DNA of 63,996 nt, counting the filler, from Asterionella formosa (Eukaryota), in the NCBI GenBank assembly GCA_002256025.1. It is 7 parts of 7 records of this genome, joined end to end, with 100 filler letters (N's around TTAATTAATTAA, not from the genome) between each part and the next. Parts side by side here need not be neighbours in the genome. Positions count along the whole stretch, not along the records: positions 1 to 9,116 come from NKIB01011103.1; 6 more parts are not named here. One strand, given 5' to 3'. Position numbers and translations under genes: made by a program. A model generated the notes under the pieces. That model saw only the letters and a program-made list of their open reading frames with translations. It was not told the DNA's origin and did no database searches. This document shows positions 1,750 through 9,116 of the stretch, one piece after another; the first letter of the stretch is position 1, and each line of letters begins with the position of its first letter.

Positions 1750-2361
1750 CTAGAAATTGTTCATACATGCATGCTTCATTTTTGTCTGGTCATAGTCTTA
1801 TTATTACAATGATGACGAGAAACATTGAAGAGATCAGCTCTTAATTGGGGATTACCCAGTAGTCTCAAATTAATCTTCTTAAAAAATACTCTCAAATCCA
1901 GTCATTGTCTTAGCCTCCAAGGCTTCTTCTGGATGTATGTATAGTGACTTGGGATAAAGGATCCAATAATTGATGTTTTAAGATCCAGTGAAGAAAAATA
2001 ATTTCATTGTACTGCATCTGGCATTTGCAATAGAATAGCCCACTTAATTGTTGTGGACCAACTCTTGCCTCCAACTGTAAACTTCTTATCTAGTTGGTTC
2101 ACTTCCCCACAAAGTCACCAAATATCGCCACTTCAATAATTGCTTCTTTCGACAACCTTGACTCATAAATTGATAACTTGAACAGAAGAGTCCTTCACTG
2201 CCAACCTTTCTGTATTAACTCATCATACAAACAGTGACGTAGAGGAAAAGCCGAAGGATGCATGGTGCCGTGACAATAAGTTATGCATAAAAAGGGACCA
2301 GGAAACTCATCCCACCAAGATTTCTTTTGGAAACAAACTAATTACTACAATCAAAGGTATT

Positions 2362-4704
2362 TCATAGTTCCCCATCGAAATCCATGGCTCCTGCTACGTC
2401 TCTGCGGTGAATGGATTCCGAAAAGCTGTCTGTATCGACGAATTTGTTTCCGTAACGTCCGGCTTTGGTAGTAGGAACCAACCTAATCCCTTTATGGCTC
2501 CCAACTCTGTTCCCTGTTTCTCGAAAAGTGGCACAGTTACCAATGATTTCTTCACCTTTCTTAATATGTGTTCCTGTTTCCACAAGGACCCCAAGTAGTT
2601 CAGATTTACGATGGAGAGGAGGAGAAAAAGGAGAAAAATGATTTTTGTCCTCGCCAAAGAGCGCATATTCTAGCAAGCCAATGTTTGCGTCTTGATCTGC
2701 ACAGCCGTGGTGAGCAAAGATCATGTCACAACCAATACTCACATACCGATCATTGGACCTAAATGGTTCCGATTCAAGGCCGTAAACATCGAAAAAATGG
2801 CGTAATCGATGGTACATTTCAACAGCAGGGAAATCATTTATAAATTTGTTCAAGGCCGCCCATCTTTGGCTGTCCAAGTGAAGGGTAAGCCCAGCATTAT
2901 GAGGTAAAACAAAATTCCCAATCGGACAATCTTTTATTGCAAACAGAGTTGGTCCCTTCACTGGATGGTGTCGAACTTCAGTGTCATAAAAGTGATGATC
3001 AGCATTGAACCATCTCGCCAGAAATGAGTTACAAATGGGCAAGTCTCGACCTGGCAACGACTTGCAATACCAATGCTCCCATGCTCGTGAGAGCGTGTTG
3101 TATTGCGTATGCGTCATGCCGTCGTAGACAAGTGTTGGCAAGACTGCAATGTTGTTGTGTAGCTTTTCAATCACATCAACCTCAATTGCTGGACTGTTTG
3201 TCCGCATAAAAGATTTGAATGTATTTGAATTTTCGCTGAAAAGGATTACAAATGCAGATGCGAGTGGTATAGCCAAGGTCTCATCATAGACTGACCCTTT
3301 CACATAACCCAGTCCATGAGGAGAAATTCGAAAGGCTTGTCGCATGAAATGGTCTCGGGGACTCAAGTAATTGTCTTCAATCTCAAAGAGTTTAGGTTGT
3401 GACCCAGCCGCAATTACCACGACAGAGCTATCAAGTAGATTTACATGCACATCTTTTTGAAAATCAATATCTAGCCACTCATCGTTTCCTATGGGCACAT
3501 CAATATACACGACATCAATGAAATCATCGTATGGGTCTTCATCAAGCGGAACCGCCGCCGCCGCTTCGGCACCTTGTTTCATCCATGTTGTGGCATTCAG
3601 TTCCACAATCTCCACAATATTCTGATATAGACATGATGTTTCGCTATTGCCAAGAAAGGTACAATCGTCGAGGTGTGGCATGAACTTTTGCGTCATTTTG
3701 ACAATGGTCCAGTCCATGCCCAAGACGACAACTCTCTTTACACCCTTGTGCTTCAAGATTTCTTTCAACGCTGCTGTCGGATCCAATGACAAAATGACAA
3801 TGAATTCAGTATACTGACTAGAAATTAGGGCTGGATGTACCAATGCTTCGGCATGTGCTGTGCCTGAGGGGTGTGTCGTTGTTAGCAATTGTCCATTCAT
3901 AAACAAGGACCTTACAGGCTGAGTAAAAGTAAAATCTTGATACTGCCAAACTTCTAAAGACATTTCATTTGAAATGTTGGAGGCGATGCGTATTCTATCC
4001 TTTCGAGCTGGCTGCGACAAAATCAGGGTATCCACGGATGAAGCAGTGAGATCGGCTAGATGCTGTGAAGCTGCTACTGTAGTAGGGTGTGTCAACTCCA
4101 TGGGACTCAATCTCTCATGGATCGACCACACAACTTCATCAAAGTACTTGATGTGATGATTGATTTTTGGAATACAGTTGACTAGTGCATCCTTGGCCAA
4201 AATCTTTCCCTTGATGTTAGGCATTGTAATTGCTACTTCAAGTTGAACCAATACTTGATTCTGGCTCGAATAAAAATGACTACTCACATGAATCATAACA
4301 GCGTCGTGATTGTGATTGCTGTAGTGGTCAATGGTGCATCGTCCTATTCGTCGTTGTTTATTATTTGTGTAACAACGTCGATCCATTTCGAAAGTTTGTT
4401 CATGAGAATTGATGATAGGAGTACCAGTATTCGTTGGATCCTTTGTCATTGTCGTTGCAGTCATGACGTTTTGAATAGCATCCGTCATGAAGGACGTGGT
4501 CAAGTCCGATATCATATTGTATGGAATGCCATCATGATCACTTGATGTTGTTGTAGTGCTTTCTTGGTGCTGCTTGTGGTATAGTTCAATGATTTGAGGC
4601 GATACAATTCCATCGTAAAAGAGTTGAAATGTTGCAGCGTTGGTAACGGAACACAATAATAATGATAATAATAATGAGTAGAGAACAATCATATTCATTG
4701 TCAT
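2362..4704 (-). CDS. Signal peptide + AdoMetDC-like + aminopropyltransferase (spermidine synthase-like) + SET-domain fusion, diatom long-chain-polyamine type, with degenerate motifs
   Basis: 780-aa intronless ORF with a hydrophobic N-terminus. RSLFMNGQ..AHAEALVHPAL..LKEILKHKGVKRVVV matches the aminopropyltransferase core. KGPTLFAIKD..IFAHHGC..IKKGEEI matches SET motifs. IHVSSHFY..QVLVQL loosely resembles the AdoMetDC HISxHTWPE region. Confidence 0.8.
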   Translation of the reverse strand: MTMNMIVLYSLLLSLLLCSVTNAATFQLFYDGIVSPQIIELYHKQHQESTTTTSSDHDGIPYNMISDLTTSFMTDAIQNVMTATTMTKDPTNTGTPIINSHEQTFEMDRRCYTNNKQRRIGRCTIDHYSNHNHDAVMIHVSSHFYSSQNQVLVQLEVAITMPNIKGKILAKDALVNCIPKINHHIKYFDEVVWSIHERLSPMELTHPTTVAASQHLADLTASSVDTLILSQPARKDRIRIASNISNEMSLEVWQYQDFTFTQPVRSLFMNGQLLTTTHPSGTAHAEALVHPALISSQYTEFIVILSLDPTAALKEILKHKGVKRVVVLGMDWTIVKMTQKFMPHLDDCTFLGNSETSCLYQNIVEIVELNATTWMKQGAEAAAAVPLDEDPYDDFIDVVYIDVPIGNDEWLDIDFQKDVHVNLLDSSVVVIAAGSQPKLFEIEDNYLSPRDHFMRQAFRISPHGLGYVKGSVYDETLAIPLASAFVILFSENSNTFKSFMRTNSPAIEVDVIEKLHNNIAVLPTLVYDGMTHTQYNTLSRAWEHWYCKSLPGRDLPICNSFLARWFNADHHFYDTEVRHHPVKGPTLFAIKDCPIGNFVLPHNAGLTLHLDSQRWAALNKFINDFPAVEMYHRLRHFFDVYGLESEPFRSNDRYVSIGCDMIFAHHGCADQDANIGLLEYALFGEDKNHFSPFSPPLHRKSELLGVLVETGTHIKKGEEIIGNCATFRETGNRVGSHKGIRLVPTTKAGRYGNKFVDTDSFSESIHRRDVAGAMDFDGEL

Positions 4705-5141
4705 TTATTCTTGTCAACAAAGATCTTTTCGTTTCGTTTCGTTTCGTTTCTTTCTTTCTGGCTCATATATAGTATGCTGTGCCTATAACGTAATCTGCTT
4801 TTCGTACGCTTTCTCGAATCTCGGATGAATCACTGAACTGTACTCCAGTATCTTGTTATTCTTGTATACCGGTCGTTGCAACAGAAAATAGAATCAAGAT
4901 CGTTGAAGTGTCTACCGGTGCAGTATTGTATGCAGCTCTATGTTTTATATTATTATTATTATGTAATCTTGTTTCCAAGACTTCAAGGAAATAATCATCG
5001 TGATGTATATAATATACATACGGTAAAATTACATATATACATATATACATTATTTATATTAATTAAGTAGGATTGAACGTGATAATAATGACAATGGTGG
5101 TGTCACCATTGTCTCAAACGATTCATAAAAGGATCCCAAGA

Positions 5142-6386
5142 ATGTCATTGCGACCTCTGCTCGTTTTCTTGATGGTCATGTCCTTCGTGAAATGTTCCAA
5201 AGCTTTTTGTTTTACTCCCACATGTTTGTTACAATCTGCTGAGTCGTCTCGTCATTTTGTAGGACACAACGGCGCCTCCTCGTCCTTGCTTGCAACAGCA
5301 ACAACATCATCATCATCATCATCTCCCTCTGTTCTTTGCATTGGTGATGCGCTCTTTGATTGTATCGCCAACGACAATGTATGTTCCATAGAGGACATGA
5401 TGATGCTGACCAATGCATGGACCGCATGGCCTGGAGGTGCTCCTGCCAATGTGGCAACAGCATTGTGCAAACTAGGAACAACCAGTGCCTTTGCCGGATG
5501 TCTTGGTGCTGATACAGATGGTGATGCCATCCAGAATCTACTGGAACAGACGGGTGTGGATGTAACACTTTTACAACGAACGGACAAGTATCCAACACGA
5601 CGGGTTATGGTCATTCGAGACCAGGTGTCAGGAGATCGAGTCTTTGCTGGCTTTTACGACGGCAAGTCGGCGGATGCCTTTGCAGATGCCTATTTTGACA
5701 TGACCATCACGTTGCAAAATGAAGCAGCAGAAGCTGTCATCATGAGAGCGAAGTATTTAGTCTGTAGTACCTTAAGTCTTGCTTTTGAAACATCAAGAAA
5801 GGCTGTTAATGATATCGTAAATCGAGGGTTGGCTGGTGGTGCTCGATTGTATGTTGATGTCAATTGGAGGGATGTATTTTGGACCAACCACGAGGAGACA
5901 GGAGCACGTCAAACTATTTTGGAATTTGCACAAAGAGCTCACATTGTCAAACTCACTGACGAAGAAGCGCACTGGCTCTTGGGAATTTCCGCATCTGATG
6001 CACTAGCCAAGCCAGAACTGGTTGCCCAAGCATTCCCACATGCATGCGCTGTCCTTGTTACTGCTGGAGAAAAGGGTGCTTCCTATTCGATTGTTGGTCA
6101 TACTGGCAAAGTCGAACCATTTCATGTGACAGTGTTGGAAACAACTGGTGCTGGTGACGCGTTTACAGCTGGGTTTATTCATGGTCTTTTGTCACTCAAC
6201 CTTGATATTGTCATGTTTAATGAGCAAGTACCTTGCGAGGACCAGCCGGAAGTTATACAGAATATAGTCCGTCTGGCCGCGGCAGTTGGTGCCTTAACAT
6301 GCACATCTGAAGGTGCTATTGCAGCACAACCTACATTCGACGAAGTTGAATCATTTCTTATACATGGACAGAAAGTATGGACATGA
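5142..6386 (+). CDS. PfkB-family carbohydrate kinase (fructokinase-like), probably plastid-targeted
   Basis: CIGDALFD, PGGAPANVA, DVNWR, VKLTDEE and TTGAGDAF motifs. Presequence MSLRPLLVFLMVMSFVKCSKA-F followed by a Ser-rich transit peptide. ATG 5142 chosen over upstream alternatives. Confidence 0.9.
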   Translation: MSLRPLLVFLMVMSFVKCSKAFCFTPTCLLQSAESSRHFVGHNGASSSLLATATTSSSSSSPSVLCIGDALFDCIANDNVCSIEDMMMLTNAWTAWPGGAPANVATALCKLGTTSAFAGCLGADTDGDAIQNLLEQTGVDVTLLQRTDKYPTRRVMVIRDQVSGDRVFAGFYDGKSADAFADAYFDMTITLQNEAAEAVIMRAKYLVCSTLSLAFETSRKAVNDIVNRGLAGGARLYVDVNWRDVFWTNHEETGARQTILEFAQRAHIVKLTDEEAHWLLGISASDALAKPELVAQAFPHACAVLVTAGEKGASYSIVGHTGKVEPFHVTVLETTGAGDAFTAGFIHGLLSLNLDIVMFNEQVPCEDQPEVIQNIVRLAAAVGALTCTSEGAIAAQPTFDEVESFLIHGQKVWT

Positions 6387-6990: not shown

Positions 6991-9116
6991 TTACACTTCC
7001 ATAGTATCAATTCCACGTTCTGGAATTGAGTCTAGTTTTCCCACAGGCTTTCGTTTTGACTTGCTCGTATTCTTGATCTTGATTATCTTGACCTGATTTC
7101 CTGGTTGACAAACAGTACATAACGAGCTAGTGCACTTGTGCACATCAACCGTTGTTGCGAACTCAAGTTCTGGAATACTATCATTGTCGCTTTCTTTTGA
7201 AATGACCGCAAGATCAAAAGCATGTAATTGTTCAGCATTGATTTGACCATTTTTATTACGTCGTCTGCCAAGACATCCCAAATCAAGACAGCCACCTCGA
7301 TTGTTTGTTGAATCGCCGGAAGCTGCGTCAATGGCATCTGCGCCCAATCCCAACCCAAAGAGGCCAGCCATGGCTGCCTTGCCATCGTCATTCTGACTAG
7401 CCAGGGTTTGCTTAATGTAATCCAATGCCATTTTGTCATCAATTTCATTCCAGACGTCAACACTTTTGGCCATGCCAACACTGGTTGCTTCTGGTGTGGC
7501 CAGTTTGTTCAAGAAGCGACCACCATTTGCATGAACACGGTCCATGACATCATGAGCAATCAAATCTCGAATTGCAGCATCAGTAGCTCCCATAAAAGCA
7601 GCTTGTCGAGCAGCAACCAAACATCTGAAACGACCATTACCTTTGTGAGTTTTCGCCACTAGAGATGATGTCGGTCTGTCAACCAGAACATCGTGAACTC
7701 CAACTTGTGTTATAGGCTCGTCGAAACTGCCATCTAGCTTCTGCATGACCCATAGCATGGCAGCCTCGTCATCGGCAACTCTCCATGACTCCAAACTGCT
7801 GGTAGTACCAAGTAGATTAGCTTCGGAATCATCAGACTTTTTCAAGAACCGACCACCATTGGACTCAACTTCATCCATAATTTTACGAGCAATTGCAACC
7901 TTTACACTGTCTCGTTTGGCAGATGCAAATTGCTTTTTCCTGGGACGGATAAGTGCTCGGACACGAGAGTTGCCTTCATGTTCAAATGGCCCAGAGCTCT
8001 TATCAAGATGAATATCAAATGAATTCAACTTGGTTATCATTTCGTGATCTTTGCTTTCCAACGCTGCCAACACAAAGTCCACCGCAGACTGATCATCAGC
8101 CAATCTCCAGGCATCAACTCCCTTACCAATAACAATGCCCTCACGCTTAGCAAAGCTGGCATCCGCCATTTGCAAGAAGCGCCCCCCATTTGACTGGATT
8201 ACATCAATTATTGCAAATGCAACCTTTTCCTTTTCCTGCAGACTATGAGCAACGAAATAATCAGACTTTCGCATATTGATTAGCCCACGAAGGCGAGTAT
8301 TTCCCTCGTGTTCGGACGGACTTGAGCACTCATCAAGGAGGACATCATGTATACCGAGCTGAGTAATAATTTTGCTGTCGTCTTCACCAGCAAGCATGCG
8401 TGAAATGGCAAGCATGGCAGATTCATGATCTGCGCATCGCCAAGCCTCAACACCCTTGGCGAAACCACCACGTTTGGCTTCAGAAGCGTCTACTTTATGC
8501 AGGAATCGACCTCCGTTTTCACGCACATCATCCAAAATCAAAATGGCAATCCTTGATTTCTCCTCGTCAGAAGAAGCAGAGTCATAATTAGATTTGTGAG
8601 CATTGACACGTGCTCGCAATCGCGTGTTGCCTTCTGCCTCGAATGGACTTGAGCTTGGGTCAAGAAGAACGTCACATGAATTTAGCTGAGTAATCAATTC
8701 ATCGTCATCCCCTCTTAGAGCTCTGTGTACAAATACCATGACCGTATCATTGTCAGCAATAAACCACGCATCGATTCCAATTGGAACTCCACAGCTGTTT
8801 GCCTCTGATTGTTCGACCCTTGTCAGGAAGCGACCATCACTCGACTGCACATGGTTACCAAGGCCCCGAGCAATTGAAGACTTGCGTTTTTCATCAGCAT
8901 TTTGATACTCTTTCTTCCAGGAGTTAACAGCGGAACGAAATTTAGTGTTGCCTTCATGTTCTGTTTGGCTCGAGCTTCTATCAAGAAGTACGTCATTCGC
9001 CTTCAATTGGGTGATGAGTTGTTGTCCACGGCTATCGTAAAAGAGACCAGCACCCGTGAAAAAAGGAGATCCCATCTCTCGAGTATCATGCGTTCCAACT
9101 GACTCATCGCCATCCT
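6991..9116 (-). CDS. Protein with five tandem DUF6824-like domains; 5'-truncated by a gap
   Basis: Five ~107-aa units of ITQL..DVLLD..HEGN.R.R....K..IA..I...V..NGGRFL....W..AD. The frame stays open from ATG 9075 to the gap at 9117. Confidence 0.8.

Follow-up and report, generated by a model that had tools for sequence, protein, structure and literature searches.

A transcribed AdoMetDC-aminopropyltransferase-SET-type protein of Asterionella formosa with degenerate canonical sites in all three domains, and its place in a diatom subfamily of possible endoplasmic reticulum proteins

Background

Long-chain polyamines and polyamine-modified, methylated silaffins shape the silica of diatoms, and enzymes of the fusion type described next are proposed to make them. 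Two groups of diatom proteins are closest to the one considered here: fusions of S-adenosylmethionine decarboxylase (AdoMetDC) with an aminopropyltransferase (APT), in some cases also with a SET domain, which are reportedly the AMDC-APT proteins of Michael in 2011, and Bacillariophyceae-specific SET methyltransferases, which are said to be the BacSETs of Nemoto in 2020. The subject of this report is a gene for a related protein in Asterionella formosa, at positions 2362 to 4704 on the minus strand of a 63,996-nucleotide stretch of joined parts from assembly GCA_002256025.1. That whole stretch is called the window, coordinates are window positions, and the product of the gene is called the window protein.

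AdoMetDC-APT fusions are described in PMC3820600 and PMC6356823, and are sometimes joined to a histone N-methyltransferase domain (PMC3820600). The functions of the fusion enzymes 'remain to be characterized' (PMC6356823), and the enzymes are listed as needing further study (PMC12803844). Proposed polyamine transfer onto silaffins is summarised in PMC4483651. BacSETs are mentioned in bioRxiv 10.1101/2020.11.23.393678 and PMC11554505, and in Seminavis robusta AMDC-APT fusions and BacSETs are co-expressed with cell-wall formation (bioRxiv 10.1101/2020.11.23.393678). The N-terminal domain of human spermine synthase, AdoMetDC-like in its structure though not by sequence, has no activity, and the enzyme needs it to form dimers (PMC12803844). 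Literature searches of main texts found no description of the subfamily reported below, of a member degenerate in all three domains, or of an -EL terminus.

The window protein has the domain order of AMDC-APT fusions and BacSETs, with significant homology over the APT, linker and SET regions, invariant cysteine pairs in common and the same taxon, the diatoms. The canonical fusions differ in having AdoMet_dc matches, the motifs GGGxG, E-I-D and D-A-L-D-P, anchor-like N-termini and no -EL end; the window protein, unlike them, has a cleavable-looking signal peptide and a terminal -GEL and has lost the Asn and Tyr of the SET domain. The explanation preferred here, to which we give about an even chance of being right, is that the gene encodes a retained, non-catalytic scaffold or binding protein of the endoplasmic reticulum (ER) lumen, from an old diatom subfamily derived from fusion enzymes.

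Results

A word-indexed protein search returned 10 relatives, including the 781-aa P0002, a 98%-identical variant of the window protein; the others were 38-65% identical and carried precomputed Pfam Spermine_synth and SET annotations. An exhaustive phmmer search retrieved 385 proteins at E<=0.001, 148 of them at <=1e-10 and 49 at <=1e-30. In a Pfam scan covering 53 of the phmmer relatives, AdoMet_dc occurred with a strong Spermine_synth match (69-121 bits) in 19, none of which belonged to the subfamily defined below, and the combination of AdoMet_dc, Spermine_synth and SET was found in 7, the canonical triple fusions. Among the 30 closest relatives, Spermine_synth was weak or absent (with the exception of P0042, at 50 bits), SET was usual and AdoMet_dc never appeared. 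The nearest ESM-Atlas cluster (score 0.91) is a Bacillariophyta 'PABS domain' cluster in which 99% of members carry AdoMet_dc and 30% carry SET.

A tree was built with FastTree (LG model) from 639 trimmed columns of an alignment of homologs, A3, leaving out the fragmentary row P0045. The window protein and 25 close relatives formed a clade of 26 sequences with support 1.0, sister to the canonical AdoMetDC-APT-SET fusions. By this phylogeny the window protein is a member of an old, monophyletic diatom subfamily of at least 26 sequences, and it carries the hallmarks of that subfamily: an S-x-x-P loop, a Gly at the ribose position, no AdoMet_dc signal, and monophyly. Judged from the alignment, the AdoMetDC and APT degeneracies define the whole subfamily and are not peculiar to the window gene, and the degeneration of SET alone is lineage-specific.

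Alignment to relatives upholds the proposal, made in an earlier sequence-only reading, that the three canonical sites are all degenerate in this protein, and the triple AdoMetDC-like, APT and SET architecture proposed there is likewise supported. A script located all five motifs quoted in that reading, at the coordinates given below. At E<=1, a Pfam scan of the window protein gave a sub-threshold Spermine_synth match alone (20.1 bits, cut-off 22.9), and neither SET nor AdoMet_dc was matched.

The APT-like domain, assigned from profile and fold matches, spans aa 216-480 (3265-4059). The family profile matched APTs of the PDB at E about 1e-13, with 'vvilSddPllllkEiLKh' aligned to Thermus 'VLIVGGGEGATLREVLKH' and 'SddP' falling under 'GGGEG'. 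An AlphaFold2 (AF2) model of aa 215-780 (566 residues) had a predicted local distance difference test score (pLDDT) of 86.5 and contained the APT fold (PF01564): Foldseek matched it to 1uir at E 6e-14, and VIA-align, a Foldseek-independent aligner, matched it to 2e5w with Z 25.9 (root-mean-square deviation (rmsd) 2.3, 256 residues aligned, target length 280), 6qmm with Z 25.7 and 1uir with Z 25.3. The gathering score of PF01564, which the window protein does not reach, is passed by several relatives, among them P0003 with 36 bits. Like the Thermus, Pyrococcus and E. coli enzymes (1uir, 2e5w and 3o4f; Z 25-26), the domain has a beta-hairpin N-subdomain and a Rossmann core, the motifs E-x-x-V-H-P and L-K/R-E-x-L-K-H and the first Asp of the gatekeeping loop; unlike them, it does not keep the glycine loop, the ribose acid, the adenine Asp or the second loop Asp. 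In the fold search with this model the H. pylori SpeE-FliM complex 5x0z, a solved structure in which a protein with the APT fold binds a partner protein, ranked 7 (Z 20.9).

The roles of the residues that bind decarboxylated S-adenosylmethionine (dcSAM) and of those in the loop are established by structural work on SpeE. Site by site, 24 subfamily sequences were compared with 22 canonical ones in columns of A3. The glycine loop reads G-G-G-E-G in the canonical sequences (21, 18, 19, 18 and 18 of 22) and has a conserved Ser (22/24) and Pro (21/24) in the subfamily; in the window protein it is S-L-D-P-T, part of the segment ILSLDPT (aa 304-310, 3775-3795) that replaces the dcSAM-binding I-G-G-G-E/D-G loop. 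The ribose-binding acid at 329, E or D in 19 of 22 canonical sequences, is Gly in 20 of 24 subfamily sequences and in the window protein, where GMD (aa 329-331, 3712-3720) stands in place of E-I-D. Position 370, the adenine Asp, is D in 21/22 canonical and 9/24 subfamily sequences and N in the window protein, and the canonical Y-H-E site is H-A-E both in the subfamily and in the window protein. In the D-x-x-D-P gatekeeping loop, aligned to 'VDSTDP' of 2e5w and 2 residues shorter in the hidden Markov model alignment to that structure, the first and catalytic Asp is kept as D402 (3499-3501; D in 21/22 canonical and 20/24 subfamily sequences). The second is D in 21/22 canonical sequences and Ile405 in the window protein, and D is outside the six commonest residues of the subfamily there. 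The glycine loop, ribose acid and adenine Asp of a dcSAM site are thus all missing from the window protein, and the changes of GGGxG to ILSLDPT and of EID to GMD, which had been read from the sequence, are borne out by alignment to solved APTs. Read from these columns, the dcSAM (donor) side is replaced throughout the subfamily, with S306 and P309 conserved, and the acceptor-side Asp, D402, is kept. Because the replacement residues are themselves conserved, the site would appear repurposed rather than merely dead.

The N-terminal domain (aa 24-215, 4060-4635) was assigned from an AF2 model and fold searches; it contains the conserved pair C111/C123 and has no processing Ser or catalytic Cys. 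The model, made for aa 24-235 with subfamily sequences as the only input, had pLDDT 86.5 and a predicted TM score of 0.83, and it shows the alpha-beta sandwich of class-1b AdoMetDC (PF02675). Its best PDB match in Foldseek was Aquifex AdoMetDC, 2iii (E 7.9e-4). In VIA-align the top match was Thermotoga maritima AdoMetDC, 1vr7 (Z 10.3, rmsd 3.1, 117 residues aligned, target length 120), with 2iii second (Z 10.2) and 3c6k, the N-domain of human spermine synthase, third (Z 8.6, rmsd 2.4, 94 aligned); these were the only 3 of 48161 chains with Z>=8. Human and potato AdoMetDC reached Z 7.7 and 7.6, and the trypanosomatid AdoMetDC prozyme 5tvf, also in the list, had Z 6.7, which is within the commonly seen range.

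Sequence comparison gave no such signal. None of 47 subfamily members matched the AdoMet_dc Pfam model at E<=10, and hhalign found no significant similarity between the N-domain and AdoMetDC regions taken from canonical fusions (probability 0.14, E 0.41). The register of that alignment, though non-significant, sets the strand MIHVSSHFY (aa 137-145, 4270-4296), which has no E-S dipeptide, over 'VLLESHxxFHTWP' of the canonical fusions, and resembles the register of the sequence-only reading. No autoprocessing Ser after Glu or Lys was found: subfamily columns 139-143 are variable, with no conserved Ser or Glu, and position 142 is T in 15, V in 7, L in 7 and A in 6 of 45 sequences. The exact processing-site column is uncertain, since it depends on that non-significant register; the columns nearby contain no conserved Ser. 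Since this strand has no conserved Ser or Glu across the subfamily, the domain cannot be a conserved pyruvoyl enzyme, and the absence of an E-S autoprocessing site, claimed from the sequence, stands. The assignment of the domain to AdoMetDC, which the same reading had called its weakest, holds for the fold (Z 10.3 to 1vr7) but not for the sequence profile, which gave no match. On the predicted structure, the N-domain keeps the AdoMetDC fold and not the AdoMetDC catalytic residues.

The SET-like domain (aa 576-735, 2500-2979) was delimited by motif alignment and relative rates; it is canonical in relatives of the window protein, where it looks functional, and degenerate in the window lineage. 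The Pfam SET cut-off (22.4) was reached by 17 of the 20 subfamily relatives that have the region, as against no match at E<=1 for the window protein. The SET-fragment profile matched SET domains of the PDB weakly (MLL1, E 0.013) through three colinear motif pairs: K-G-R-s-L-F-A with 'HGRGLFC', F-t-N-H-a-C with 'FINHSC', and G-e-E-i-x-x-d-Y with 'GEELTYDY'. The Asn of NHxC and the catalytic Tyr are essential in characterised SET enzymes. In the window protein NHxC is replaced by HHGC (aa 665-668, 2701-2712), in which the His and Cys are kept; at the first position all 47 homologs in A3 have N. The pattern F-x-[N/H]-H-[GSA]-C occurred in 65 of 158 retrieved proteins, with N in 63 and H in 2, the window protein and P0002. 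In GEEIIGNC (aa 717-724, 2533-2556), Cys724 takes the place of the catalytic Tyr of (E/D)E-x-x-x-Y, which is Y in 45 of 47 homologs. Both substitutions had been noted from the sequence, and the homologs bear them out.

Of 41 columns of A3 conserved at >=85%, the window protein differs at five: T299, P585 (R in homologs), H665 (N, 47/47), C724 (Y, 45/47) and R741 (G, 43/45). Four of these deviations lie among the 16 SET and post-SET columns, against one among the 25 others (Fisher p = 0.067). In the rest of the subfamily 0-2 SET columns deviate per sequence, so that the window protein is an outlier in its clade, though not unique overall. The canonical proteins P0126, P0106 and P0118 keep NHGC and show deviations at 4-6 of these 16 columns, and SET degeneration may recur in the wider fusion family. 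A 9-residue segment bearing the conserved post-SET Cys is absent from the window protein (a gap in alignment A1). P0002 is the one other protein that has HHGC, the Cys in place of the catalytic Tyr and this deletion. Missing from the domain, in all, are the Asn of NHxC, the catalytic Tyr, the K-G-R Arg, the Gly of the post-SET part and the Cys segment; His666, Cys668, Gly717, Glu719 and Arg699 remain. The region was modelled at pLDDT about 76-97 and confidently to aa 729, and aa 730-780, at <50, are modelled as disordered. Fold searches covered SET only as part of the 566-residue model, and their lists were taken up by APT and class-I methyltransferase matches.

Rates of change set the SET-like domain apart. 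Its identity between the window protein and P0003 is 50%, as against 80.6% between P0003 and P0004 and 54.4% between P0003 and P0007; for the APT-like domain the corresponding values are 74.9%, 77.2% and 41.7%. A scan of metagenomes yielded 14 loci, all distant (21-31% identity) and none an orthologous coding sequence, and protein relative-rate tests and population variants were therefore used in place of dN/dS. In Tajima relative-rate tests of SET against P0003 with three outgroups, the window protein had 36 unique changes to 14, 37 to 11 and 34 to 5 (p = 0.0019, 1.7e-4 and 3.4e-6), and against P0004 the p values were 0.013, 0.0046 and 1.6e-4. For the N-domain, the APT-like domain and the linker, p exceeded 0.05 in each of the six comparisons, made with P0003 or P0004 as the partner and three outgroups for either. 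The acceleration is thus confined to SET.

The N-terminus reads directly as a cleavable-looking signal peptide (predicted aa 1-23, 4636-4704), with the hydrophobic core IVLYSLLLSLLLCSV and with TNA preceding ATF; the N-termini of relatives are similarly hydrophobic, and those of canonical fusions have longer, anchor-like hydrophobic segments. The cysteine pairs C111/C123, C348/C358 and C547/C558 are near-invariant and would fit luminal disulfides. A C-terminal -EL is found in 21 of 38 SET-bearing subfamily sequences versus 0 of 33 canonical fusions; the subfamily ends include KDEL, HDEL, SDEL, ADEL, NDEL and GEL, and the -GEL end (2365-2373) is kept in both variants, the window protein and P0002. 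In Phaeodactylum tricornutum, DDEL acts as an ER retention signal (PMC3503769). Together, the signal peptide, the cysteine pairs and the conserved -EL point to ER retention rather than secretion. The protein is predicted to be soluble and most likely retained in the ER lumen; the earlier view that it is secreted is doubtful, as the conserved C-terminal -EL indicates retention.

The open reading frame (ORF) comprises 780 codons from an ATG and a stop codon (2362-2364), and is intact, as had been read. Of 24 listed runs, 20 contained the stretch; they come from 13 studies, chiefly of lake or freshwater samples, and 8 of them are recorded as RNA. Four RNA runs were compared with the stretch. In a poly(A) RNA run, one 3096-nt contig was colinear with 1800-4870 with one difference and 0 gaps, so the gene has no intron. 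In three runs the contigs stop at 4870-4876, and in the poly(A) run 4959-5075, before the next gene, is uncovered, which fits a transcript boundary. The transcript had the highest word depth in the stretch, in a small poly(A) library where contig depth is a poor measure of expression. Variant contigs differed at 20 sites in the ORF (11 nonsynonymous, 9 synonymous), with no stop and no indel. Over aa 1-735 there were 5 nonsynonymous and 6 synonymous sites, a ratio of nonsynonymous to synonymous polymorphism (pN/pS) of about 0.23; within SET alone the counts were 2 and 2, too few to judge, and in the tail (aa 736-780) 6 and 3 (pN/pS about 0.57). These data describe a transcribed gene that has no intron and whose frame is undisturbed in population variants. 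That it is retained and not dead, as the sequence-only reading held, is supported by the intact frame, the RNA contigs and the pN/pS over aa 1-735.

The remaining regions of the protein are a conserved linker or pre-SET region (aa 481-575, 2980-3264), whose pair C547/C558 is invariant in A3 (each 47/47), and the disordered, polymorphic tail (aa 736-780, 2365-2499), which has no conserved F-L-x-x-x-C segment. Within the window, tblastn found no second copy, the gene itself being the sole match.

Seventeen subfamily sequences without SET were considered as a true two-domain class, which was rejected: all end <=12 residues after Y/F-D-E-V/P (query aa 473-476) and look like, though they are not proven to be, gene calls cut at an intron. 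They are P0024, P0025, P0029, P0031, P0036, P0037, P0039, P0041 and P0043, with P0058, P0065-P0070 and P0072. Their apparent intron point is conserved, and the window gene has no intron there.

In the 3' untranslated region (UTR; 2064-2307), contigs of runs X4 and X10 swap 167 bases (2139-2307) for 163 others, and in run X18 loose ends that match these lie at 2064 and 2307; the segment looks allele- or strain-specific. RNA contigs resume near 5129, at a neighbouring 437-aa ORF (5073-6386, plus strand) that has an N-terminal extension and encodes a PfkB-family carbohydrate kinase (158.9 bits). A further ORF of 694 aa (6991-9075, minus strand) has five tandem DUF6824 repeats (213 bits) with a repeated motif close to 'ITQL..DVLLD...S..EHEGN.R.R'. 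Positions 9117-55246 contain 15 runs of N, 1994 bases in total, many of them in pairs of 44-base runs separated by 12 bases, at a spacing of roughly 9.2 kb; they look like masking, not sequence.

Discussion

The results are best explained by a retained, non-catalytic ER-luminal scaffold or binding protein. The subfamily would have derived from AdoMetDC-APT-SET fusion enzymes linked to the modification of long-chain polyamines and silaffins, and the window protein would no longer make dcSAM, transfer aminopropyl groups or methylate. Its AdoMetDC-fold domain may mediate oligomerisation, like the corresponding domain of human spermine synthase, and its APT-like pocket may serve as a putative binding site for an amine, a polyamine or another substrate. 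The protein could then act as a scaffold, chaperone or regulator for active membrane-anchored paralogs or for their substrates. The candidate roles named in the earlier sequence-only reading were polyamine binding, regulation of chain length and a prozyme-like partnership. The SET domain would be a vestige under relaxed constraint, and its frame would be maintained in part through the C-terminal retrieval signal, which would select against frameshifts even if SET were dispensable.

Two described proteins offer partial parallels. Human spermine synthase likewise has a fold of the class-1b AdoMetDC kind, without sequence similarity, upstream of an APT domain; its APT is active and the enzyme cytosolic, whereas the diatom APT has no dcSAM site and the protein is predicted to enter the secretory pathway. 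The spermine synthase N-domain is reported to be needed for dimer formation, and the diatom domain is known here from a predicted monomer fold. The trypanosomatid prozyme is, as the window protein would be, a dead paralog in a polyamine pathway, retained as the partner of an active enzyme, and its activating heterodimer has been demonstrated; unlike the window protein, it is a single-domain paralog of the eukaryotic type of AdoMetDC.

A different account, which we consider unlikely, would have the APT-like domain repurposed for another transfer in the ER lumen, for example of preformed polyamine units onto silaffin lysines, here without SET methylation. It draws on the conservation of the replacement residues (S 22/24, P 21/24, with D402 in 20/24) and on the ortholog-like rates at which the N-domain, the APT-like domain and the linker change. 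On the other side, the glycine loop, the ribose acid and the adenine Asp (N370; D in 9/24 of the subfamily) are gone, no alternative donor site is demonstrable, and the literature searches gave no experiment on subfamily members. Michael in 2011 reportedly proposed polyamine transfer for fusions with an inactive AdoMetDC; if dead-AdoMetDC fusions were indeed described there, the subfamily-level finding is less novel.

That SET keeps methyltransferase activity in spite of HHGC and Cys724, so that the protein would be a SET enzyme carrying two scaffold domains as its relatives do, appears quite improbable. Retention of His666, Cys668, Gly717, Glu719 and Arg699, the confident model up to aa 729 and a polymorphism (2 nonsynonymous and 2 synonymous sites) that is not obviously neutral speak for activity. 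Yet the lost Asn is N in 47/47 homologs in A3 and in 63/65 overall, the lost Tyr is Y in 45/47, and both align to S-adenosylmethionine (SAM)-binding or catalytic motifs of MLL1; the K-G-R Arg has gone as well, as have the Gly and the Cys segment of the post-SET part, no Pfam SET match is found at E<=1, and SET alone is accelerated. The same acceleration, with the loss of invariant residues and a hypervariable, disordered tail, could be read as the mark of a young unitary pseudogene heading for loss, transcribed into a functionless product. This we hold to be very improbable, given the 780-codon frame, which is unbroken in the window and which the variant contigs preserve without indels, the absence of acceleration in the N-domain, APT-like domain and linker, the pN/pS of about 0.23 over aa 1-735, the terminal -GEL kept in both variants, and the word depth, highest in the stretch (in a small poly(A) library, with contig depth a poor expression measure).

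Several points weigh against a non-catalytic ER-luminal protein. The loss of activity is inferred from motif loss alone, and the conserved S-x-x-P together with the kept D402 could point to a new activity instead of to a lack of activity. The window SET is 48-54% identical to the orthologs P0003-P0006 (36% to P0007) and is predicted with high confidence, and its polymorphism (2 versus 2) is a weak hint of purifying selection; it may still do something. The end -DGEL, with G at -3, is not a classical [KH]DEL. The RNA evidence consists of assembled contigs, which alone cannot prove transcription.

Conclusions

The gene separates three events. The AdoMetDC and APT domains would have been converted, anciently and across the subfamily, into non-canonical modules with new conserved residues; membrane-anchored proteins would have given way to soluble, probably ER-retained ones; and the catalytic residues of SET would have been lost recently, in one lineage. 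Taken alone, the advance is descriptive and modest.

No enzyme is known to us that couples polyamines to biosilica proteins, although no search was aimed at one. In a speculative extension that we rate as rather unlikely, the S-x-x-P APT-like domain would be a new ER-luminal activity or reader that, with the AdoMetDC-fold module, attaches or holds polyamine chains on silaffin-type lysines, and that module would have been kept under selection after SET was inactivated in the window lineage. If true, it would be a candidate for the coupling enzyme. The family offers two contrasts, an ortholog with intact SET versus the window protein, and the canonical loop versus the S-x-x-P loop, which could reveal the binding roles of the domains and whether pseudoenzyme partners regulate biosilica chemistry in diatoms.

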